IMG/VR virus record: IMGVR_UViG_3300014838_000008
Length of the DNA: 38,824 nucleotides
Direction: 5' to 3' (one strand)
DNA from: a virus
Shown here: in pieces, positions 15,962-38,824 of the stretch
How the letters are laid out: each line of letters begins with the position of its first letter
How positions within the stretch are numbered: position 1 is the first letter of the stretch
Notes under the pieces: generated by a model
The model's database searches: none
The model's input: the letters and a program-made list of their open reading frames with translations, nothing else
What the model was told of the DNA's origin: nothing
Program-made: the position numbers and the translations under genes

Positions 15962-16903
15962 TTATGAGTGTGTTGCGAGCAACTGAGTGATCCAGTTGTC
16001 ATTGAGGATTCTGGTTGCAAATGGGTACTTGTAACCTACTGTGCCTCTTTGGTTTAAGGGGTCAGCGGTTCCAGATGCGCCCAAAGGTTTCACGATAAAT
16101 TCGGCTTCTTTCGCGCCTAACCGAACAACCCCATAAGCCTCTTGGCCCAGGATGAAGCTAGAATAAACAGGAGGAGATGCAGAAGTGCTGTATCCATTTG
16201 TGTTTAAGAGCCAGCGCACGTTACGGGTAGAACCCCATTCCGCCTCAAGCCCATTTAAAGGATTAGGATAATTAGCAACTGATATAAAAGAAGAAACTGC
16301 TTCTAAATCATCTTGTAAATCAACTGACATAAATCCCCAATAAGAACTTCTTACTGGTGCAGTTCCAAACTTATTCTCGCCAGGTAAAGGATTCGTCATT
16401 AACCGTGCATTACCTTGACGCAATGCAATTACAGCTAATTGAATATCTTCATCTGTTAATTCTGTTGGAGTATTTCCATTTCCGCCGTGAGTACAATTAA
16501 TTACAGAACTAGTTGAAACCATCATATCTCTAATTAGAGTATCGATAGTCAAACCTAATTGTAATGAAAGAACTTTAGTTGCTTCATTTAATACGCGGTC
16601 TTGTACAACATACTGAACTTGGTCAGTAATTGTTACAAAGTCGCCATACCATTGGATCTGAGCCAAAAAGTCGGTAACTGAAAGTTGATCTCCAGGTGGT
16701 GTTTGGCCATCTGTTAGAGGAACTGTTGCAGCTGTGAGTGTGCCATATCGACGGAAAACCATCATATCCCCAGAGTTCAGAGGAATCTGACGCTTTTGGG
16801 CGAAGAGGTCGTAGATATAATATGGCCGAGCCAGAGCTAGAAGAAGACGGTCAAAATATTGACGGACTTCAGGTGGCAGCTGGGTTAAGGTAGTGATTGC
16901 CAT
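15962..16903 (-). CDS. Major capsid protein, HK97 fold, N4-gp56-like family, 313 aa
   Basis: Follows the scaffold gene. The N-terminal pattern ...RQYFDRLLLALARPYYIYDLFAQKRQIPLNSGDMMVFRRYGTL.A...PLTDGQTP is characteristic of that MCP family. Confidence 0.8.
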   Translation of the reverse strand: MAITTLTQLPPEVRQYFDRLLLALARPYYIYDLFAQKRQIPLNSGDMMVFRRYGTLTAATVPLTDGQTPPGDQLSVTDFLAQIQWYGDFVTITDQVQYVVQDRVLNEATKVLSLQLGLTIDTLIRDMMVSTSSVINCTHGGNGNTPTELTDEDIQLAVIALRQGNARLMTNPLPGENKFGTAPVRSSYWGFMSVDLQDDLEAVSSFISVANYPNPLNGLEAEWGSTRNVRWLLNTNGYSTSASPPVYSSFILGQEAYGVVRLGAKEAEFIVKPLGASGTADPLNQRGTVGYKYPFATRILNDNWITQLLATHS

Positions 16904-18149: not shown

Positions 18150-18398
18150 CTAATATCCTGAGTTAGCATCCCAGCCATAACTTTTGAATTGGCTATGGAT
18201 TTTCTTTTCATCGGATGCGCAACCATGTTTGCCGGCTTGACCGTAGGCGGTGTCCATTGCTTCGCCTTTATAATCTTCGCAATTTTCCATAGGCTCATTT
18301 TTACGAGACTTTGGAACATGCGGTTTTTCTACTTCATTCTCATACATCGCATGGCCGGAATGACCCATATGACCATCCATGTGCTTATGTTTTTTCAT
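18150..18398 (-). CDS. His-rich small protein, 82 aa (MKKHKHMDGHMGHSGHAMY...)
   Basis: ORF track entry. 7 His in the first 17 residues plus two Cys. Confidence 0.4.
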   Translation of the reverse strand: MKKHKHMDGHMGHSGHAMYENEVEKPHVPKSRKNEPMENCEDYKGEAMDTAYGQAGKHGCASDEKKIHSQFKSYGWDANSGY

Positions 18399-18404
18399 AT
18401 GCCT

Positions 18405-18587
18405 CTACTTGTGCATTTTTTTTAACGTTTCAGCGAGTCGAGCGCGTTTGCCCTCTACCCCTTTCTTTTTTGCAGCCATTGCCAGCTTTTTAGCTGGGAT
18501 AGGTTTGCCTTTTTTAGCGTGGAGTTCTTTTCTCAACGCGCCTTTATTTTCAGGCTTAATTGCATCCTGAATCCATTTTTTAGCCAT
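18405..18587 (-). CDS. Small basic protein, 60 aa
   Basis: ORF track entry. The KGALRKELHAKKGKPIPAKKL...KRARLAETLKK pattern recurs in small phage and bacterial proteins. Confidence 0.45.
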   Translation of the reverse strand: MAKKWIQDAIKPENKGALRKELHAKKGKPIPAKKLAMAAKKKGVEGKRARLAETLKKMHK

Positions 18588-18596
18588 TTGATCTCT

Positions 18597-18812
18597 CTAT
18601 CGTTTATGTCGTGGGTATTCTTTATGGCTTTCTCTCGCATATTCGTTATAATCGCCGGAGTCAGCAGGAGGAGATGGGGGCAATAAATAGCCATATGGTT
18701 TCTCTTGAGCCTGCACATACATGTCGAGCTGACGACTTTGCGATTCTGGAGGCATCACATGCGAGAAGGATTCTGGATAAACGTCTGGGAACTTTTTATT
18801 CTTGTCTTTCAC
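18597..18812 (-). CDS. Hypothetical protein, 71 aa
   Basis: ORF track entry. First gene after the internal promoter at 18850..18878. Confidence 0.4.
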   Translation of the reverse strand: MKDKNKKFPDVYPESFSHVMPPESQSRQLDMYVQAQEKPYGYLLPPSPPADSGDYNEYARESHKEYPRHKR

Positions 18813-18894: not shown

Positions 18895-21009
18895 TTACGC
18901 TGCTGTGGCTTCAGAAACCGCTTTAGGGACTGGTGCTTGAGGTTTCGCGTTCTCAGGAGTGTTCCTATCCTCTTCAGCTTTTTGACCGCCTTCTAGGGCC
19001 TTTAAAACTTGAATTTTCTGCATCAGATTAGATATATCTAACCCTTCAAGCTCTTTTACGGCTTTAATCAGGTTGAGGACTCCGCTGGTGCGGTCTTCTT
19101 CTGCTCTGGAGATACGCTCTGCGGAGAGGGCTGCGTCGAGCTGGACTTTATTGAGTCGTTCGGCTGCAAGGGCTTGATCGCTCTGAGCTTTAGCATTAAG
19201 AGAGTTAGTGACGGTCTCTTGCTGCTGAAGTTGCTGACGGAGCTGCATGTCTTGAACCTGCTGTGCCATCTTCGCTTTGGCTTCGAGGCGATCTTGTAGA
19301 TCTTTTTTATTGTGGAGGTTAGAATTCTTAATAATAAGCGCATCATCGACATCGACTCCCATCATTTTTAGAGCAGTCAGCTGTACGAATTGAGATTGGC
19401 GCTGAGTATCTGTGAGTACGCCTTCTTCCACAACCACATCATATTTAGAGAAGGTTTTGGAATAGAATTCAGGAGTTGGCTGCTTTTTGGTGATTAACTG
19501 GATCTTTTCTGGGGTATAATTGGCTTGGATCAATTTGAGGACTTTTCGACCTAAGAGCTTTTGAGAATCGCGGAGTCCATCGAAGATATCTTGTAGATTG
19601 ACGAGACCTGCTGCCTGACGCATTTTAGCGAGGATACCAGCTGTTTCGATTTTATCATTCTCTGCCATACCGAGATTTTCTGGGCTGATACCCACGTTCT
19701 CGATCATGTCCTTGTTGAACTCATTCTCTAACTGAAATAAAGAGGGATGGATGCCTGGAGCTTCGATTCTCTGGATGTCGGTCATTTGAGCTTCCGGCTT
19801 GAGGAAGATGACCTGACCATTACCTGACTTGAAGAGAGAAGCGTTATTGGTGACCGCGCCTGTTTTTGCGATCCATCCAGAGTTCAGCTGAGCGTCGATG
19901 ATATCGACCATTTTCGAGCGACGTTTATTGAGTTCTGTCTGCGGATCACGAATGAGGCGGACTAGAGATTGAATTTTCCAGGTATATAGATCATAGGAGG
20001 GTTCAAATGTGCAGAGGAATGGAACCATGGGGTATTCATTAAGGCCGCCTGGGTCTTTTCCGTAATAGAGGAGTTCTCCTTCTACGATAATCCCCAGCTC
20101 CACGCTTTTAACTGGTTTGCGAACGATCTCAATTTGAGGGAATGCCTCACGGAACATACGGAGGCGTTTGCGGTCTCCATTCCATTCTTTTGTTTCCCCT
20201 GATTCCATATCAACCAGAACATCTTTTGTCTCCCAGCGAGTGCGCCAATATTCTGTATAATTCAATAACTTCTGCATACCCCATTGGCGGGCATAAGGCA
20301 TATAAGTGAATTTATCATCTCTCGATCCCCAAGGTAGCACATTGATTTTATCCTCTTTATCGGGAAGGAGAGAGATTACTTCGGTGCGGGAGAGAAATTT
20401 TCTGCGAGCAACGAAGCTACAATCTGAAAGATCCTTCTTTGTGAAGAATGGATCTAGGATTACCGCATTCCATTCATCCAGGTGGAATTTAACGTCTCCA
20501 GAGATAGGGTCGGAGCGGTAATCCATGTACGGAGAGACGAAGGAGATGCCAGTTGTAAGAGCGCCTTTAAAAGCGTCAGAGATGATCGTATAGCCATCCG
20601 CTGATTCCATGACGTGCTGAATGGTATCAGTGAAAATATCTGCTGTGAGATCAGCAGCATCTTCCACGGGAGAGATGATTGTCGCAAGTCGGTTTTTGCG
20701 CTGATATCCCTGAATGAGATTGATGATTCGGCGGATTTTATTGTATGTGAAGGAAGATCGACGCTGATTATTAAGATACGCCAGTTCTTCCAAAGACCAC
20801 TGATTCCCGAGGTAGTAGGAAAGGTCTTTGTATGCTTCAGCGTAATAGGTATTCCAGAGCTGATAGGCTCTCTCATAAGATTCACCGAAGTCCTGAATGA
20901 TGTCTTGGTGGAATTCCAGGCGATCATCATTAGCGATCTTTTTCTTGTAATCCCCTAGAAAATCGCGGGTATCCTGCGATTGGGAATAATCGCTCATGGG
21001 GCTGGCCAT
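18895..21009 (-). CDS. Portal protein, 704 aa, with a long C-terminal helical (barrel-like) extension
   Basis: Size, position in the head module, and a Q/A/L-rich ~120-aa coiled C-terminus reminiscent of the P22 portal barrel. Confidence 0.7.
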   Translation of the reverse strand: MASPMSDYSQSQDTRDFLGDYKKKIANDDRLEFHQDIIQDFGESYERAYQLWNTYYAEAYKDLSYYLGNQWSLEELAYLNNQRRSSFTYNKIRRIINLIQGYQRKNRLATIISPVEDAADLTADIFTDTIQHVMESADGYTIISDAFKGALTTGISFVSPYMDYRSDPISGDVKFHLDEWNAVILDPFFTKKDLSDCSFVARRKFLSRTEVISLLPDKEDKINVLPWGSRDDKFTYMPYARQWGMQKLLNYTEYWRTRWETKDVLVDMESGETKEWNGDRKRLRMFREAFPQIEIVRKPVKSVELGIIVEGELLYYGKDPGGLNEYPMVPFLCTFEPSYDLYTWKIQSLVRLIRDPQTELNKRRSKMVDIIDAQLNSGWIAKTGAVTNNASLFKSGNGQVIFLKPEAQMTDIQRIEAPGIHPSLFQLENEFNKDMIENVGISPENLGMAENDKIETAGILAKMRQAAGLVNLQDIFDGLRDSQKLLGRKVLKLIQANYTPEKIQLITKKQPTPEFYSKTFSKYDVVVEEGVLTDTQRQSQFVQLTALKMMGVDVDDALIIKNSNLHNKKDLQDRLEAKAKMAQQVQDMQLRQQLQQQETVTNSLNAKAQSDQALAAERLNKVQLDAALSAERISRAEEDRTSGVLNLIKAVKELEGLDISNLMQKIQVLKALEGGQKAEEDRNTPENAKPQAPVPKAVSEATAA

Positions 21010-21840: not shown

Positions 21841-22005
21841 TTAAAACTTCTTCTGAATTAAGGGAGTGATCGGAGTGACCTGAATATCGACCCCTTCATT
21901 CTTTTTCAGAACGGTCTCGGTGAGTTTTTCCATCTCATCGGATGGTTGGCTCTTGTTAAAAAGGGTGCAACTGCATAAAGTTGTTAAAAGTATTAAATAT
22001 TTCAT
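21841..22005 (-). CDS. 54-aa putative lipoprotein (MKYLILLTTLCSCTLFNKSQ...)
   Basis: ATGA overlap with the RNA ligase stop. Signal-peptide-like N-terminus with a lipobox-like L-C-S-C. Below the track cutoff. Confidence 0.45.
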   Translation of the reverse strand: MKYLILLTTLCSCTLFNKSQPSDEMEKLTETVLKKNEGVDIQVTPITPLIQKKF

Positions 22006-22670
22006 TGAAACTCCTTACATTTTAATTTAAACATAATTGGTCTACCATTACGGAAAAGCATGAGAGGTGCGGAACGTGCAACAACCCCTTCCATCATTTG
22101 TGGAATTTCAGAGCAGCGACTTAGTGGCTTTGACTTCACGAAATCCACAATTTCATCTTCTGTCATTATCCCGATATGAGGTACAGCAGGAACAGATATT
22201 TCTGATGCTATGGCCCGCATATCTTGACTTTGTAGTACCCAATTGCCGACCACTACGTCAAACATGATAAATCCTGGGTGTTTGCGGTAATTTCCTCCGC
22301 CAGCCTGGATTTTTGGGCCATACCCCTCTCCAAAGAGAGTTACCTTCTGAGCATCTTTAAAAACGCTCTCGATCTTTTCCAGCGTAAATACTGTTTGTAG
22401 ATAAGTGAGAAGATGCGGGGCGATCTGCGCATTATCTGTTCTTCCAGCGATTCTAAAAGACTTGTCCCTTTCATATTCTATCCTTATATTGGTTCCATCG
22501 ATCTTTTCTGAGACATCCCATTTCTTGATATTCCCAAACTCTTCATCTGCATAATCACCGATAATTAAAGATTTAAGAACATTTGGATAAAATGATGATT
22601 TTTTCTTATCTTGATCGAAATACCAGCCTTGTCTCTTCCATAGGCTATTTATCTTGTAATACTCGCTCAT
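22002..22670 (-). CDS. ATP-dependent RNA ligase (minimal Rnl / DRB0094-like nucleotidyltransferase), 222 aa
   Basis: Ligase motifs I SEKIDGTN, III LFGEGYG, IIIa FIMFDVV, IV EGVVAR and V MFKLKCK occur in the canonical order and spacing. Confidence 0.7.
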   Translation of the reverse strand: MSEYYKINSLWKRQGWYFDQDKKKSSFYPNVLKSLIIGDYADEEFGNIKKWDVSEKIDGTNIRIEYERDKSFRIAGRTDNAQIAPHLLTYLQTVFTLEKIESVFKDAQKVTLFGEGYGPKIQAGGGNYRKHPGFIMFDVVVGNWVLQSQDMRAIASEISVPAVPHIGIMTEDEIVDFVKSKPLSRCSEIPQMMEGVVARSAPLMLFRNGRPIMFKLKCKEFQ

Positions 22671-22908
22671 CGCCTATTCCTTTCTTTTTCCATTGAGAAA
22701 ATCCGTAAAAGTTAAGCCATATTGAAATGAGGCAAAATGCGCCTTGTGCATAGAGGCCGATGTAAAAATCTCTGACCATCCAATAGATCGCTCCGAATGC
22801 CCAGATTAGAAAACATACTCTTCGCCCCTTCGCATTCAACCATCTTGCCCATTTACCAGAAAGGGAAACGACTGTATCAAGTGCTTCCCCGATCCAATTA
22901 ATTTCCAT
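22645..22908 (-). CDS. 3-TM membrane protein resembling one half of a PnuC nicotinamide-riboside transporter, 87 aa
   Basis: FLIWAFGAIYWMVRDFYIGLYAQGAFCLISIWLNFYGFSQWKKK matches the PnuC pattern (...GLYa.a.l.......iyGw..W) as I remember it. Confidence 0.4.
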   Translation of the reverse strand: MEINWIGEALDTVVSLSGKWARWLNAKGRRVCFLIWAFGAIYWMVRDFYIGLYAQGAFCLISIWLNFYGFSQWKKKGIGDERVLQDK

Positions 22909-23105
22909 TATTCAGTTAATTTTAAAGTATAATCACTAATTTGATCTAATGATGATAATTTAAATATTATATAATTACAATTTCCCTCATCATCTTTACT
23001 ATTTAAATATTGTGGCAATTCTTCAGGTTTTGAAGTATATTGTGCAGCATTATATTCTCTTCCTGAATCAGCTCTTAAAATTAGATATATTTCTTTTTTA
23101 GACAT
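22908..23105 (-). CDS. Hypothetical protein, 65 aa
   Basis: ORF track entry. Confidence 0.4.
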   Translation of the reverse strand: MSKKEIYLILRADSGREYNAAQYTSKPEELPQYLNSKDDEGNCNYIIFKLSSLDQISDYTLKLTE

Positions 23106-23122
23106 AAAGCTCCATTTATGTT

Positions 23123-23317
23123 TTAAATAATGACTGTTAATTTTAAAGGATGTTCAATACAGTCAATAAATGAACTCCCGTCATCTTTTGTGGTCTTGCA
23201 AATGTTTTGCCCATTGCCACATCTAGTACAATGATGTCTTACCCAGGATTTATTCTTTTTATCAGGCAAAAAAGTTATTAAATGCTCTACTACTTCTATA
23301 TATTTTATATTTGGCAT
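23123..23317 (-). CDS. Cys/His-rich (Zn-binding-like) small protein, 64 aa
   Basis: ORF track entry. HHCTRCGNGQNIC...C..H. Confidence 0.4.
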   Translation of the reverse strand: MPNIKYIEVVEHLITFLPDKKNKSWVRHHCTRCGNGQNICKTTKDDGSSFIDCIEHPLKLTVII

Positions 23318-23320
23318 CTA

Positions 23321-23410
23321 TTACTTCAGTTTTAAATTAGGGACAATTCCAGGAGGTAAAGGTATCCTGGGTAACGGGATGAAAGGACTCTGAACGCTAT
23401 TCTGAGTCAT
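23321..23410 (-). CDS. Proline-rich mini-ORF, 29 aa (MTQNSVQSPFIPLPRIPLPPGIVPNLKLK)
   Basis: ATG at 23410. Stop TAA at 23323..23321, 3 nt before the next ATG. Contains PPG. Confidence 0.3.
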   Translation of the reverse strand: MTQNSVQSPFIPLPRIPLPPGIVPNLKLK

Positions 23411-23438
23411 CGGGCTTATCGGCGACCTCTGAGGTGGC

Positions 23439-23678
23439 CTAGGAATCATTGGAATGCAGATTGGCATGATGTGCCTTATAAATATGAATCATTTTTTCTA
23501 AACAATCTTTAATTATATCAGTAGGATTTAATTTTAATTTTTCTCCGTGATACCCATTCCATAAATACATTAAATCTATATCTTCCAGCAATCCTTGTTT
23601 CCAAGCAATGCAAGCACCTTTGCCAAATGCCCATTCACTAAATTCAGGGTCTACAGAGGTATCTACTATTGCTCTCAT
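23439..23678 (-). CDS. Hypothetical protein, 79 aa from ATG 23678 (the track version starts at TTG 23726)
   Basis: The first ATG sits in an ATGA overlap with the stop of the Pro-rich mini-ORF 23675..23785. The TTG start has no SD. Confidence 0.45.
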   Translation of the reverse strand: MRAIVDTSVDPEFSEWAFGKGACIAWKQGLLEDIDLMYLWNGYHGEKLKLNPTDIIKDCLEKMIHIYKAHHANLHSNDS

Positions 23679-23785
23679 GATCTCACTGGAGGGGTTGGCA
23701 AAGATCCTAATGGCTTTGGCGCCCAAGGCCCTTGCGGGAATGAATTTGGCGGCTTCGGTGGTTTTGGTGTAATTACTCGTCCCAT
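23675..23785 (-). CDS. Proline-rich mini-ORF, 36 aa (MGRVITPKPPKPPNSFPQGPWAPKPLGSLPTPPVRS)
   Basis: The ATG lies 1 nt after the GroES-like stop. Ends in an ATGA overlap with the downstream gene. 12 Pro in 36 aa. Confidence 0.35.
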   Translation of the reverse strand: MGRVITPKPPKPPNSFPQGPWAPKPLGSLPTPPVRS

Positions 23786-23786
23786 G

Positions 23787-24053
23787 TTAATTATCCTTTA
23801 ATATCGCTAAAACCTGATTATCCGCTATTGAAAAGTAAATTTCATCATCAATATTAATTAAAACCCCTGATTCTCCAGGTAATATAATTATATCGCCTTC
23901 TTGCACATTTTTATCGACTTCTGATCCTACAGCGATAACTACCGCATGCAACTCTTTTTTTTCTCTTTCAATCAGGAGTATTCCCTTTTGAGGCTTTTCT
24001 TCTTGGGGGATTATCTGAACTACGATTCTTTTTCCGGCGGCTGCTATTTTCAT
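23787..24053 (-). CDS. groES: GroES-like co-chaperonin (Cpn10 / gp31-like), 88 aa
   Basis: GKRIVVQIIPQEEKPQKGILLI...HAVVIAVGSEVDKNVQEGDIIILPGESGVLINIDDEIYFSIADNQVLAIL follows the Cpn10 pattern along its whole length. Confidence 0.7.
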   Translation of the reverse strand: MKIAAAGKRIVVQIIPQEEKPQKGILLIEREKKELHAVVIAVGSEVDKNVQEGDIIILPGESGVLINIDDEIYFSIADNQVLAILKDN

Positions 24054-24291
24054 AATTCCTCTCTATTTTTTTTAGGCAATCTGGGCATTGATAATGAGTT
24101 GTCATATCTAAATCCCAGTCATATATCCCTATGATTCTGGAAAATTGCTTAGGCGATTCTTTCGTCCATCCATAATGCGAGGCCGTTTCTAGGGCTTTTG
24201 CTTCATCGCCATATTTCTTAAGAAAGTGCTGGAATATATCGCCTGAATCTAACACGGTCTTGCAATGCGGGCAATGTGAGGGATGGGACAT
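23968..24291 (-). CDS. Zn-ribbon protein (CPHC...CPDC), 107 aa; its basic tail overlaps the groES-like start by 86 nt
   Basis: ORF track entry. Two CPxC pairs. Confidence 0.45.
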   Translation of the reverse strand: MSHPSHCPHCKTVLDSGDIFQHFLKKYGDEAKALETASHYGWTKESPKQFSRIIGIYDWDLDMTTHYQCPDCLKKIERNYENSSRRKKNRSSDNPPRRKASKGNTPD

Positions 24292-24306
24292 TTTATCCTT
24301 TAAATT

Positions 24307-24381
24307 TCTGGGTGGAAGGATTTGAACCTCCGACCTGCCGGCTCCAAACCGGACGCGCTAGCCAAGCTGCGCTACACCCAG
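24307..24381 (-). tRNA. tRNA-Pro (anticodon UGG)
   Basis: Hand-folded cloverleaf: acceptor CTGGGTG/CACCCAG; D arm GCGC-AGCTTGGCTA-GCGC; anticodon arm (T)CCGG-TTTGGAG-CCGG(C); variable loop AGGTC; T arm GGAGG-TTCAAAT-CCTTC; discriminator A. No encoded CCA. Confidence 0.85.
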
Positions 24382-24382
24382 A

Positions 24383-24455
24383 TAAGAGCGGATGGATTTG
24401 CACCATCGATCACTTCCTTATAAGAGAAGGGCTTTGACTGCTTAGCTACGCTCTT
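24383..24455 (-). tRNA. tRNA-Ile (anticodon UAU), atypical D and T loops
   Basis: Hand-folded: acceptor AAGAGCG/CGCTCTT perfect; 3-bp D stem GCT/AGC with loop AAGCAGTCAA (no GG); anticodon arm CTTCT-CTTATAA-GGAAG; T arm GATGG-TGCAAAT-CCATC (G at position 55). Ends 1 nt before tRNA-Pro. Confidence 0.65.
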
Positions 24456-24569
24456 CCATATCTTTTTAAGCCGAGCCATTTGCGATAGTTTCTCACTCGG
24501 CAATCACAAACAAAGTTTCCTTCTCTATGAAGATTCTCTTTTTTTAACTTCTTGTCGTCGAATTTCTTT

Positions 24570-24767
24570 TTAGAGAGTTGTTTTATCTTTTTTATCGGAG
24601 ATATCAATTTTAAAAATTATCTTTGCTGCGCTTGACATTGCTTCATTTATTGATGTAATATTTCTGTCTTCTTCTTTTATACACATTAATTTTAACATTA
24701 ATATCATAGAAAAGCCCTTAATATTATCTTCTAATTCTTTTTGAGTAAATGTATAACTAGTTTCCAT
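24570..24767 (-). CDS. Hypothetical protein, 65 aa
   Basis: ORF track entry. Lies between rtcB and the tRNAs. Confidence 0.4.
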   Translation of the reverse strand: METSYTFTQKELEDNIKGFSMILMLKLMCIKEEDRNITSINEAMSSAAKIIFKIDISDKKDKTTL

Positions 24768-24778
24768 AATTTCCTTTC

Positions 24779-25987
24779 TTAATCTTTATAAGGGTCATGA
24801 TCTCGGCTATCTGCCATACAAACGCCTATGGGCTTGAGATATTCTTCGATTTCAATTGTTTCTGCATGTGCTGCCAGAATCTCTTCAATGCGCTTGTAGG
24901 CTTGAGGGGCTTCGTCAACGTCGGCTCCTCGGAGTTCGACTCCTTCTCTTTTAATCCAAGCTTGCATCTCATCTCTGCTGATAAGTCCAGCTTTGATAAT
25001 ATTGCCTCGCTTATCTCGCTTTCCACGGGCTTGAGTTCTTCCCATTGCACGGCCTGCTCCATGTATGGTTGAAAATAAGGATTGGGCCAATATAGAAGGT
25101 TGCTGCCCTCCTTCTTCAGATATTTTCTCTTTTCTTCCACGTAGGATAACTGATATATCTCCCATAGATCCTCCAACAAAGCCTCTTTGACCAGGAAAGG
25201 CAGGAGTGGCCCCTTTTCGCAGGACCCAGAGGTCTCGACCAAAATGTGTTTCTCGCCAAGCGAAATTATGGTGATTGTGAACTTCTTCGACGATATTTCC
25301 TCTAAGGATTTGCGCAACGCGTTGGCATACCCAGTCTCTCCCTGCATAAGCATAGCGCCCAGCAACCTCCATGCACCGCAAATAAAGCTGTCCGAGTTCT
25401 GAATGGTCATCAAATAATACTGGTTCTGCGTGGACTCCATCTTTTCCGCCTCCTGCCTTTACGAAGTGAGTAGCAATGCTGTGGCCAAGTCCACGGCTGC
25501 CAAAATGCACACCAACCCAAATGCGGTCAGCGCGATCAACAAAAATGTCCACATAATGATTTCCGCTGCCGACCGTACCCAGCTGGGCAACCGCTTTGTC
25601 TTTGAGTCCTTTGAGAAGATCGATTTCGTCCCATATAGGTTCATCGAAGATCGGATGATCCACACGCTCATTATTTTTCCTGCCAACTCCGAAGGATATT
25701 TTTGATTGAATTTCATTCATGATCCTATAAATATCTTTTTTTATTCCTTCTGCGGGGCAATCCAATCTTACGGCCTTATTACCGCAAGCAATGTCATAAC
25801 CCACGCCATTAACGCAAATCTTGCCTTCGTAGGCTATCACGCCCCCTACGGGCACGCTGTAGCCAATATGTGCATCAGCGCATAATACTGCATGAACTAC
25901 GGGAGATTTTTCACAAACCGCATTCATCTGTGCTAAGGTTTCTGGATCTGCATTACCAAAAATCTTAATATCTACGTCATGATTCAC
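24779..25987 (-). CDS. rtcB: RNA 3'-phosphate/2',3'-cyclic phosphate ligase RtcB, 402 aa
   Basis: Full-length match to RtcB hallmarks: CADAHIGYSVPVGG, GYDIACG, GSGNHYVDIF, VHFGSRGLGH, NHHNFAW, HGAGRAMGR. Confidence 0.9.
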   Translation of the reverse strand: MNHDVDIKIFGNADPETLAQMNAVCEKSPVVHAVLCADAHIGYSVPVGGVIAYEGKICVNGVGYDIACGNKAVRLDCPAEGIKKDIYRIMNEIQSKISFGVGRKNNERVDHPIFDEPIWDEIDLLKGLKDKAVAQLGTVGSGNHYVDIFVDRADRIWVGVHFGSRGLGHSIATHFVKAGGGKDGVHAEPVLFDDHSELGQLYLRCMEVAGRYAYAGRDWVCQRVAQILRGNIVEEVHNHHNFAWRETHFGRDLWVLRKGATPAFPGQRGFVGGSMGDISVILRGRKEKISEEGGQQPSILAQSLFSTIHGAGRAMGRTQARGKRDKRGNIIKAGLISRDEMQAWIKREGVELRGADVDEAPQAYKRIEEILAAHAETIEIEEYLKPIGVCMADSRDHDPYKD

Positions 25988-26442
25988 TTTTTACCCCATT
26001 GATCTTTGAAATATCGCTTAATGCGAGCCATTTTATCCTCGGTCGTCTCTTCTAGTGACCTAAATTTTATTCCATCGCCTGTAGAATATAAGATACACAC
26101 TTTAGAATTTATCGATTCATTTTCTTCTGGAAGAGGATTTTCTTTTCTTTCAGGGCAGAAATAGCGATCATCTCTATTATGGCGAACCCAATTCAGCAAT
26201 CCCTCTTTTTTATAGGTGGGATCATCTATAAAATACTCCCTCTCATCAGCAACTCGCCAATGGGTAACTATTTGCAAAGCGCACGCCATTTGATTGGCAG
26301 TCATTGAAGGCTCATCGAAAAACCAGCTGCCTAGAGAATTTATTTGGGCATATCCCACGCCGTTAGCCGTCAACACCTCTACAAAAATCTCCTGAAGCGG
26401 ATAACCTTCATCAATTGGAATCCATTCGCCTTTTTCACTCAT
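25984..26442 (-). CDS. DUF551-like phage protein, 152 aa from ATG 26442 (the track version starts at TTG 26547)
   Basis: EWIPIDEGYPLQEIFVEVLTANG resembles the DUF551 W-I-x-x-x-D-x-x-P...V-L-V motif. The ATG sits in an ATGA overlap with the upstream Pro-rich mini-ORF. Its stop overlaps the rtcB start. Confidence 0.5.
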   Translation of the reverse strand: MSEKGEWIPIDEGYPLQEIFVEVLTANGVGYAQINSLGSWFFDEPSMTANQMACALQIVTHWRVADEREYFIDDPTYKKEGLLNWVRHNRDDRYFCPERKENPLPEENESINSKVCILYSTGDGIKFRSLEETTEDKMARIKRYFKDQWGKK

Positions 26443-26600
26443 GGATTCCCTCCGCCCCCTGGAGGAATCTTCATCACTTGAGGAGTGGAGTTGACTTTTG
26501 GCTGATTCGGAGCCGGCTGAGGGAGGGTTTGTTGAGGGTTTGGCCAATATTTTGGACGAACCGGAGGGGGAATAGGCGTAGTTACGGTAGATTTAGGCAT
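26439..26600 (-). CDS. Proline-rich mini-ORF, 53 aa (MPKSTVTTPIPPPVRPKYWPNPQQTLPQPAPNQPKVNSTPQVMKIPPGGGGNP)
   Basis: The ATG shares a base with the upstream TAA (TAATG). Stops in an ATGA overlap with the DUF551-like gene. 16 Pro in 53 aa. Contains PPP and PPG. Confidence 0.35.
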   Translation of the reverse strand: MPKSTVTTPIPPPVRPKYWPNPQQTLPQPAPNQPKVNSTPQVMKIPPGGGGNP

Positions 26601-27591: not shown

Positions 27592-28154
27592 GCTACTGCG
27601 GGTTTAGGATCTTCTTTTACGGGCAGAGTAGGATCTTTTACCCATACTTCCACTCCATCAGCCTTGGTATGAAGGTGTTTGAAACCTTTATCTTTAGCCT
27701 CGGCACGCGCTTTATCCATTCGAGCTTGCTCATGCGGATCGTGCGTATCTTGAGGGCCTGAACCATAATAACCAGTGATTTCCATGGTTTGAGGCGCATT
27801 GACTGCCTTCTTATGGATGAATAGTTCTTCTCTAGCTTCTGCTATTTCTTTACGTCGTCTATCCATTGAATATTTTAGATTATCTTCTAATTCTCTAATT
27901 CTCTTAATAATAGATCTTTTAGACTTGAACCAATGTTTTACAATATCGCAAATACTCATCTTTCTCCTGCTAATTAAGTTAATTCTTGCATCGGGTGGCC
28001 CTATATATGCGTACTTACCGCTAAACCTTATCCCGATAGTTGGAATGCAAATTTCTGTACTACTTTCATCTTGATACTTATTTTTCGATTGACTTGCAAG
28101 TATTTTTTCTGGCATAAAGTTTGGATCTACAATTGCGCTCATGTTATTTCTCAA
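27588..28154 (-). CDS. Coiled-coil protein, 188 aa (paralogue of 27046..27591)
   Basis: See the paralogue. ATGA-type overlaps with both neighbours. Confidence 0.45.
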   Translation of the reverse strand: MRNNMSAIVDPNFMPEKILASQSKNKYQDESSTEICIPTIGIRFSGKYAYIGPPDARINLISRRKMSICDIVKHWFKSKRSIIKRIRELEDNLKYSMDRRRKEIAEAREELFIHKKAVNAPQTMEITGYYGSGPQDTHDPHEQARMDKARAEAKDKGFKHLHTKADGVEVWVKDPTLPVKEDPKPAVA

Positions 28155-29580
28155 AGATAGGTTGGTATTTATCGCGCATTCGCTCTACCTCAAAGTCGGT
28201 AGGGCCTTTACTGCTTTCAGCGTAGCGTTTGATCCCTAGGGCCATATATCGGGCTGCATCTGCCCCGTGGCTCGCCCAATCGTGAACGGGGCGCGTCTTA
28301 TATACGTTGTGGATTTCATCGAACTCTTTGCGGTAGTTTTCTAGGCAGAGGATGAGTCGCTTGCAGTTCTTTTCATCGATCCAGATTCTAGGGAATATCC
28401 CTCGAAGGCTCTCGATACCGCTTTCCACTGATAATTTGAGAGTGGGCAGAGTAATGAACTTGATCCCAAACTCCATCGCCACTTCTTTAACGGAATTACC
28501 CCATGAGATATGGTGGTTTTCGATATCCTGTGGCCCATAATGATCCGCATAGAGGTACTTCTTTTTAGAAATGACTTGAGCGTAATGCGGAAAACCCTCT
28601 CCATGATTTTCATAGTAGTCAATAATGTGTATCTCTTGGCCAATGATCTGGAAGAATATAATACTTGTGGAGTCGCCGAATCCAATATCCCATGCTGTAT
28701 ATACACGACTTGTTTCTTGCCAAATGACGTTTCCAATTCGGTTTTCGTCTCTTGCTCGCTGAATATTCTTGGCATAATAGCTTCCCTCAATACCCATCGT
28801 GAATGAGCAATAGAACTCCTGTTGGATATAATCCTCGCTCATCCCCTGCTCGCGCTCTGATTGAACGTCGGCTTCCGAGATAACGGGTGAGCCATCCTCA
28901 CGCTTGGTATCTTTAACCGTGAGCAATTGGGTGAACCATGAGTCATTGCCCTTGGCCATGTCATATAGCTCTTTAGCGTGGTTAGCACCGCGAGGGGTGA
29001 AGTTGAACACCGCCCATCCGCCATTTTCTACTAAGATAGGGCGCATGAGCGTCCATGCTGCAGGCTCTTGAAGGGAGAATTCAGAGTAAACGCAACCCAT
29101 CGGGTTAGTACCAACGATCGAGTCGATATTATCCGTGCCTATGATCTGAATGATTGAGCTATTGCGTAGAACGATCTTCATTTCTTGTTGGTTTTTAGAG
29201 CGGATGATCTGTTCGGGGATATGATCAAGGACTTTGAACCCCTCTTTGTCTATGAAATCCCATAGCACCTTGCGCCCTTGAGCAAATGAGGGGAAGAAAT
29301 AGAAATAGACACCGACCTTGAGTAGAGCTTGCTTAATGACGAAGTTCCAGCACACCTTCTCTTTACCTGCTCGCCTATGCCAAACAAGGATCGCTCTGCG
29401 GATAGCATCGGGATGAGAGGATTGAGGGAGATGAGCGTATTGCATTGCTCGGAAGAAGTCTTTCTGATAAGCCCTTGTTTTGAAGTTGAAAGGTATCTCA
29501 ATATCAATCGTCTTGACTTTAGAGGATTCGCCGTTAGGAGTTTTGGTGAAGTGAGGAAGTTTAGAATACTTTTCTTTCAT
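28144..29580 (-). CDS. terL: Terminase large subunit, 478 aa
   Basis: Walker-A-like VWHRRAGKEKV. C-terminal RNaseH-like nuclease signature YTAWDIGFGDSTSIIFFQ. Size, and position next to terS. Confidence 0.8.
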   Translation of the reverse strand: MKEKYSKLPHFTKTPNGESSKVKTIDIEIPFNFKTRAYQKDFFRAMQYAHLPQSSHPDAIRRAILVWHRRAGKEKVCWNFVIKQALLKVGVYFYFFPSFAQGRKVLWDFIDKEGFKVLDHIPEQIIRSKNQQEMKIVLRNSSIIQIIGTDNIDSIVGTNPMGCVYSEFSLQEPAAWTLMRPILVENGGWAVFNFTPRGANHAKELYDMAKGNDSWFTQLLTVKDTKREDGSPVISEADVQSEREQGMSEDYIQQEFYCSFTMGIEGSYYAKNIQRARDENRIGNVIWQETSRVYTAWDIGFGDSTSIIFFQIIGQEIHIIDYYENHGEGFPHYAQVISKKKYLYADHYGPQDIENHHISWGNSVKEVAMEFGIKFITLPTLKLSVESGIESLRGIFPRIWIDEKNCKRLILCLENYRKEFDEIHNVYKTRPVHDWASHGADAARYMALGIKRYAESSKGPTDFEVERMRDKYQPIFEK

Positions 29581-38411: not shown

Positions 38412-38824
38412 ATGTTCCGGTTCGAAATCAGCGGCATCCCAGTCGCTCAAAAGCAAACTCGCTTTTCTGCTAGAGGAGGAATTCCTCGGGCATATGATCC
38501 CAGCAAAAAGGATCTCGAACGCATTCGATGGCAAATACGTCCATTTGCCCCTAAAGATCCCATCTTAGGCCCTATTGCCCTTACCCTTATTTTTTTCATG
38601 CCTATCCCGAAGGCTACCTCGAAAGCTAAGCGAGACCAGATGCGAAGGCGCATCATTCTACCGGTAGTCAAACCCGATGCGGATAATCTCGCCTACCTAG
38701 TGACCAATGCCCTTAAAGAATTGATCTATAAAGATGATAATCAGATATGCGAACAGCATATCTATAAAGTCTATGATGAGCTTCCCCGAACAGAAATTAT
38801 TGTGAAAACGATCCAGACCGCTGA
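38412..38824 (+). CDS. rusA: RusA-family Holliday junction resolvase, N-terminal part (runs off the window end; resumes at position 124; 147 aa in total)
   Basis: AGGAG lies 7 nt upstream of ATG 38412. MFRFEISGIPVAQKQTRFSARGGIPRAYDP...ALTLIFFMPIPK...KPDADNLAYLV. Absent from the ORF track because it has no in-window stop. Confidence 0.75.
   Translation, partial: MFRFEISGIPVAQKQTRFSARGGIPRAYDPSKKDLERIRWQIRPFAPKDPILGPIALTLIFFMPIPKATSKAKRDQMRRRIILPVVKPDADNLAYLVTNALKELIYKDDNQICEQHIYKVYDELPRTEIIVKTIQTA
38702..38824. repeat. Terminal direct repeat, copy 2 (identical to 1..123)
   Basis: See copy 1. Confidence 0.95.

Follow-up and report, generated by a model that had tools for sequence, protein, structure and literature searches.

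The window considered here is the whole of IMG/VR virus record IMGVR_UViG_3300014838_000008, a stretch of 38,824 nucleotides (nt) from permafrost metagenomes. Three short open reading frames (ORFs), here called A, B and C, encode peptides rich in proline and lie in the 7-kb interval between the terminase and portal genes (Table 1). A preliminary description of this DNA had taken them either for stalling leader peptides gating the genes coupled to them or for small Pro-rich proteins. We find that all three ORFs are real protein-coding genes.

Three proline-rich genes between terminase and portal

With ~39 kb, the window represents a complete podophage-type genome. The contig is terminally redundant, with the window start repeated at 38701, and the terminase, a P22-type portal, an N4-gp56 capsid protein and podovirus-like tail genes are all encoded on the minus strand. 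The peptide genes share this strand with the head genes and lie upstream of them. Contigs of a second, independent study carry A, B and positions 23347-23467 of C in a form identical to the window.

Among the 334 ATG-initiated ORFs of the window, A, B and C rank as the top three in Pro content. ORFs of at least 30 amino acids (aa) with at least 25% Pro, of which three are observed, occurred in none of 60 Markov-shuffled genomes. The peptides consist of ~30% Pro and 5-8% Arg, carry a net charge of +4 to +5 and are nearly free of acidic residues; neither a signal peptide nor a membrane segment is apparent in them. Their N-termini have in common a short motif, approximately GxVx[IVT]PxPP, that combines a hydrophobic strand with Pro. 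Every peptide contains at least one PP. The PPP/PPG stall motifs that had been ascribed to the ORFs are absent from B, which has neither, and are reduced in C to a single PPG.

Re-reading the sequence confirmed the coordinates and Pro counts given earlier for A and B. The start of A is embedded in TAATG and that of B in TAA-c-ATG, and both stop codons overlap the next ATG (26442 and 23678, respectively) as ATGA. The third ORF had been described as 29 aa long, with its ATG 28 nt past the previous stop. Instead of at 23410, C starts at 23467, which lies 29 nt within the preceding gene, and encodes 48 aa. Its homologs align across the 19 extra N-terminal residues, and this extension is among the best conserved parts of the family. 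The gap between C and the next gene is +3; unlike A and B with their ATGA overlaps, C does not overlap the following start.

Table 1 Features of the window bearing on the Pro-rich genes, listed in the direction of transcription.
Feature	Position	Strand	Remark
Terminase large subunit	28144..29580	-	5'-side boundary of the peptide interval
Gene A, 53-aa basic Pro-rich microprotein, 16 P	26439..26600	-	Invariant WPxP, C-terminal Gly run; matches module 1 of E
GGAGGG ribosome-binding site within the Gly codons of A	26448..26453	-	5 nt before the next ATG
152-aa accessory gene behind A	25984..26442	-	Coupled in this genome only; no relative in viral contigs
tRNA-Pro(TGG)	24306..24382	-	Accessory; absent from most peptide-carrying loci
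Gene B, 36-aa basic Pro-rich microprotein, 12 P, C-terminus PVRS	23675..23785	-	Matches module 2 of E
GTGAGA in the Val-Arg codons of B, likely ribosome-binding site of the next gene	23681..23686	-	GTGAGG in most homologs
79-aa accessory gene behind B	23439..23678	-	Family in 6/35 loci
Gene C, 48-aa basic Pro-rich microprotein, 14 P	23321..23467	-	C/D family, SPxSP and PRIP motifs
P22-type portal	18895..21009	-	Downstream end of the peptide interval
N4-gp56 family major capsid protein, HK97 fold	15962..16903	-	Putative partner of the peptides

Conservation, module fusion and codon-level selection

Other viral contigs contain A at 66-71% identity and carry B and C as well. A wider family was revealed by scanning loci that had been fetched via the terminase alone. 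One phage group has separate A, B and C, and a larger group has a protein of 91-100 aa, termed E, together with a 50-aa protein termed D. D is the homolog of C. E contains the N-terminal strand-plus-Pro motif twice, and its two modules are joined via Gly-rich linkers; in profile comparisons, A corresponds to module 1 (probability 72%) and B to the entire module 2 (probability 61%). A and B are fused in most of the clade, with split forms at two places in the terminase tree. Protein searches yielded at least 15 clusters of A, at least 64 of C/D and at least 145 of E.

The full set, i.e., A, B and C as separate genes or E plus D, is present in 14/14 terminase-selected loci that reach the portal. 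It is likewise complete in 35/35 loci spanning terminase to portal, in the fixed order A/E, B, C/D; the other full-span loci had been found via one of the peptides, and only the remainder of the set counts there. The next most common family of the interval, GroES, reaches 11/35, and no family exceeds this. We regard A, B and C as core late genes in this clade. Being the sole invariant genes between terminase and portal, they serve as a clean clade marker and point to an essential step. Gene callers often miss them: B and C are mostly uncalled, and D is left uncalled as well. The families constitute three previously unannotated families of microproteins.

Conservation acts at the level of codons. 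Along the whole length of the genes, mismatches reach 0.61-0.67 at third positions in comparison to 0.20-0.32 at the other codon positions, and pN/pS (the ratio of non-synonymous to synonymous changes per site) is 0.27-0.47, an uncorrected value with synonymous sites near saturation. Several codons encode 81 of the 84 invariant columns, and the alternative reading frames are mostly interrupted. Trp, Gln, Ser, Gly, Val and Ile are conserved at positions distant from any stall site, and the motifs WPxP, SAxQG, SPxSP and PRIP, likewise distant, are invariant. The mean pairwise identity of D is 71%, next to 72% for the portal and 69% for the terminase. This answers the check on frame conservation proposed in the preliminary description: the Pro-rich frames are maintained by selection on codons, most of the alternative ones are disrupted, and its option of a small Pro-rich product therefore stands. 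The third-position pattern also rules out a non-coding RNA as the source of the conservation; Rfam matches were restricted to tRNAs.

Searches of Pfam, PHROGs, NCBIfam, PDB sequences and the ESM Atlas gave nothing usable for the peptides. A search of all representatives for longer forms, made for C/D, yielded only short members of the family, with no fusion to a known domain, and a 714-aa repeat protein, which we rejected as a chance match.

The phage clade, its probable host and neighbouring genes

Carriers of the peptides form a single terminase clade (support 98/96) with genomes of ~35-40 kb, and matches to the peptide families lie on contigs of up to ~42 kb among the matches listed. Six outgroup phages with a terminase identity of 46-52% gave no hit to any peptide profile. 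The nearest annotated terminases, at 33-47% identity, belong to Alteromonas phage ZP6, Pelagibacter podophages and the Manatee Spring phages, all of which fall outside the peptide-carrying clade (terminase identity at least 53%). Cultured members of the clade did not come to light, and literature searches returned no paper on the clade or on phage-encoded Pro-rich peptides.

The host was approached through bacterial genome assemblies. Among 185,579 species genomes, the only terminase of clade level (62% identity) was located on a contig of a Chlamydiia bin, together with E and D. A second Chlamydiota bin contains a 2.4-kb fragment of the clade with a capsid N-terminus at 84% identity, and three further Chlamydiota bins contain related capsids at 41-48%. 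The phage RtcB gene shares 68-71% DNA identity with chromosomal genes in six Chlamydiota genomes, a comparison made with no control phylum. No spacer-like match was obtained in 400 Chlamydiota genomes, with about two candidates scored per genome. Since this evidence consists of bins, we assign the clade to Chlamydiota hosts with moderate confidence. This widespread clade may represent tailed phages of environmental chlamydiae, a group for which our literature searches yielded no description.

Identities of the capsid protein within the clade were 87-92% in one comparison and averaged 93% in another, far above those of portal and terminase, and drop to 41-45% in the nearest outgroups. In some relatives the capsid gene is split (L206, 14084-16496; L218, 12954-14162), probably by an intron; in L206 its parts surround an oppositely oriented LAGLIDADG endonuclease gene. 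Three further small, unstructured-looking genes occupy the gap between portal and scaffold (window 18150-18812) and recur in relatives, one with PYGY and PP.ADTGD, one Lys-rich and one His/Met-rich; they are candidates for head-internal proteins.

Apart from the peptides, the interval holds genes for RtcB, an RNA ligase, GroES and a PnuC-like protein as well as two tRNAs. All of these, with RtcB in 4/35 loci and RNA ligase in 9/35, behave as swappable accessories (window 22002-25987). A tRNA-Ile with the unusual anticodon TAT (UAU; 24383-24455), also seen in L167, abuts the tRNA-Pro. An array of seven tRNAs, tRNA-Pro not among them, immediately precedes E in L182 (1775-2608), and a tRNA-like gene of L006 (11685-11758), for which a four-base anticodon loop (gtaa) was called, was left unassigned by ARAGORN. 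The position directly after D is often taken by small lipoprotein-like genes whose tail contains Pro (window 21841-22005; L014, 14238-14405); these are possibly spanin-like. Inserted beside D in other loci are collagen-like (Gly-X-Y) proteins with Cys-rich N-termini (L007, 5457-6146; L024, 8900-9679). Neither an endolysin nor an integrase was recognised among the scanned proteins.

Possible functions of the peptides

The peptides are very unlikely to be gene-specific stalling leaders. Five families of downstream genes follow 8 A genes, five follow 7 B, six follow 6 C, 12 follow 20 D and 14 follow 24 E; often the next gene is another of the peptides, and in L206 the portal gene comes next after D, at a distance of 61 nt. 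PPP is present in 9/15 A, 10/64 C/D and 8/120 E homologs at varying positions, PPG in 16/64 C/D and 0/120 E. On both counts the claim that Pro-rich stalling gates a particular coupled gene finds no support. Its supposed tie to the phage tRNA-Pro fares no better: this tRNA is confined to the window, L001/L005 and L004/L153, three related A/B/C phages, and we rejected the linkage as a general feature. A generic version, in which stalling senses EF-P or Pro-tRNA status and gates whatever gene lies downstream, could draw on the tightness of coupling, as the next start lies within -8 to +3 of the stop in 59/70 peptide genes versus 98/225 other ORFs of the interval (a baseline that includes spurious ORFs), on the PP in every peptide and on the tRNA-Pro in the interval of those three phages. 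We nonetheless regard it as very unlikely. Partners and stall motifs are not conserved, residues far from stall sites are, fusion of A with B eliminates one of the stop-start junctions, all four Pro codons are freely used, and leaders known to sense Pro are far shorter, with 16 aa in MgtP (PMC8092293).

The coupling itself is best explained by an embedded ribosome-binding site. The final codons of the peptide genes form Shine-Dalgarno (SD) sequences, namely GGAGG in the Gly run of A and TGAGG in the Val-Arg codons of B and E, and these 3' ends, with their overlapping ATG, would be reused by incoming accessory genes. TTG-extended versions of the downstream frames were rejected: as had been pointed out before, they lack an SD, whereas the ATG at 26442 has one 5 nt ahead of it (Table 1), and the genes are not conserved behind the peptides. 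Promoter and terminator matches were at chance level only.

Two further explanations place the peptides outside the capsid lattice. As effectors resembling proline-rich antimicrobial peptides, they would act on the tunnel of the host ribosome, on release factors or on DnaK and reshape or stop translation late in infection. Their cationic, Pro-rich and nearly Asp/Glu-free composition would suit this role, as would several translation-related neighbours (tRNAs, RtcB, RNA ligase and GroES), although these are accessory. Furthermore, 7/7 B homologs end in P-[VIL]-R-x-stop and the penultimate residue of E is Arg in 77/120, reminiscent of the PIRV terminus of drosocin, in which the Arg at this position traps release factors (PMC13233979, PMC11549390). 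However, the terminal Arg is mostly encoded by AGG within TGAGG before the next ATG (18/32 versus 41/261 internal Arg codons, p=1.5e-6). Since this AGG forms the SD, the latter would account for much of the penultimate Arg, even though 6/32 use CGN. The feature is also missing in A (0/15) and nearly so in C/D (1/64), the Arg content falls short of the 4/19 in drosocin, the alignments contain no PRPPHPRL or PRPT pharmacophore, and the peptides measure 35-100 aa in comparison to 15-34 aa for apidaecin-like ones. We consider such effectors unlikely. Alternatively, the peptides might face the envelope or a sheltering eukaryote, as mimics of WW, SH3 or Pro-directed kinase ligands or as lysis helpers for an unusual envelope. 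The fragments of the clade in two Chlamydiota assemblies point in this direction, as do PPxY in 77/120 E homologs, repeated PxSP in D, the lack of a recognised endolysin among the scanned proteins and the small membrane or lipoprotein genes that often flank the peptides. Against this, the host call relies on assembly bins, signal peptides and membrane segments are not apparent, B of the window is devoid of PPxY, motifs of this kind arise readily in sequence rich in Pro, Tyr and Ser, and each flanking membrane or lipoprotein family occurs in only 3-7/35 loci. We hold this role to be quite improbable. The broader proposition, that a clade of environmental-chlamydiae phages has core cationic Pro-rich peptides acting on the bacterial ribosome or chaperones or on eukaryotic WW/SH3 proteins, strikes us as doubtful too.

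We favour a role in the virion and put its chances at about even: A, B and C may be minor head components, extended chains that line or cement the head. According to this proposal, the peptides would not fold alone. Each would start with a hydrophobic strand and Pro motif and continue as a rigid, basic and nearly acid-free arm that is rich in Pro and carries aromatic anchors, would lie extended on the capsid or the portal vertex, probably facing the DNA, and would cement or pace head assembly in the manner of P30 of phage PRD1. Folding would occur on the partner lattice via repeated binding-like modules with optional flexible linkage, and A and B would act close together, as suggested by the Gly-rich linkers that join them in most relatives. 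Core status in the head operon, constraint at the level of the portal, repeated modules and aromatic anchors all fit chains of this type. In keeping with a P30-like cement, the peptides are small and Pro-rich, and AlphaFold2 assigned E no fold of its own (predicted local distance difference test score 50, predicted template modelling score 0.14), a low score that suggests, but does not prove, disorder. The unusual constraint on the capsid protein is also consistent with a cemented head.

Several observations weigh against a virion role. The peptides match no known structural protein in the databases searched. Their genes lie amid non-structural accessories (RtcB, RNA ligase, GroES and tRNAs) and not beside the capsid gene. 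Divergence of the peptides follows that of portal and terminase (rho 0.26-0.64) better than that of the capsid (0.11-0.18), which barely varies. In the window, A and C appear to have weak ribosome-binding sites, which fits poorly with a high-copy cement. A conserved host target would account just as well for core status and selection. A predicted complex of A, B and C with two copies of the capsid protein scored 0.00, with no controls run alongside, and speaks neither for nor against a virion role. Given their small size the peptides could be made by synthesis, so that both the structural role and the one modelled on antimicrobial peptides can be tested without phage culture.

Among known systems, the leaders MgtL and MgtP resemble the peptides as short ORFs with several Pro codons ahead of a gene. 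MgtP, however, belongs to the 5' leader of one fixed operon (PMC8092293, PMC11611912), whereas the ORFs described here are longer, operon-internal, conserved as proteins and followed by variable genes. Apidaecin and drosocin are insect peptides, cleaved from precursors, rich in Arg and equipped with a fixed C-terminal pharmacophore (PMC11549390, PMC13233979). They share with our peptides a cationic, Pro-rich composition, and a penultimate Arg is often observed in B and E; here the pharmacophore is missing and the terminal Arg codon doubles as SD, and the apidaecin-type likeness noted in the preliminary description is one of composition only. Closer to the proposed role are the fibre-like minor proteins gp93 and gp162II of phiKZ, which cement an HK97-type shell (PMC11297242). 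They too are extended chains holding capsomers together from inside the head, but they belong to a jumbo phage, arise by cleavage of larger precursors and have not been described as rich in Pro, and no homology to them was found.

PRD1 is a membrane-containing, tailless phage with a different capsid fold. The closest functional analogue of the peptides is its protein P30, described as 'proline-rich, mostly disordered, extended' (PMC7602432): like them it is small and Pro-rich, and it is disordered alone, extended when bound and required for capsid maturation. No sequence match connects the two, and here three modules are found in a phage that has a tail and an HK97/N4-type shell, to which they are proposed to bind. 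If the peptides are structural, they would extend P30-like cementing, here by three modules, to small tailed phages whose shell is of the HK97 type.

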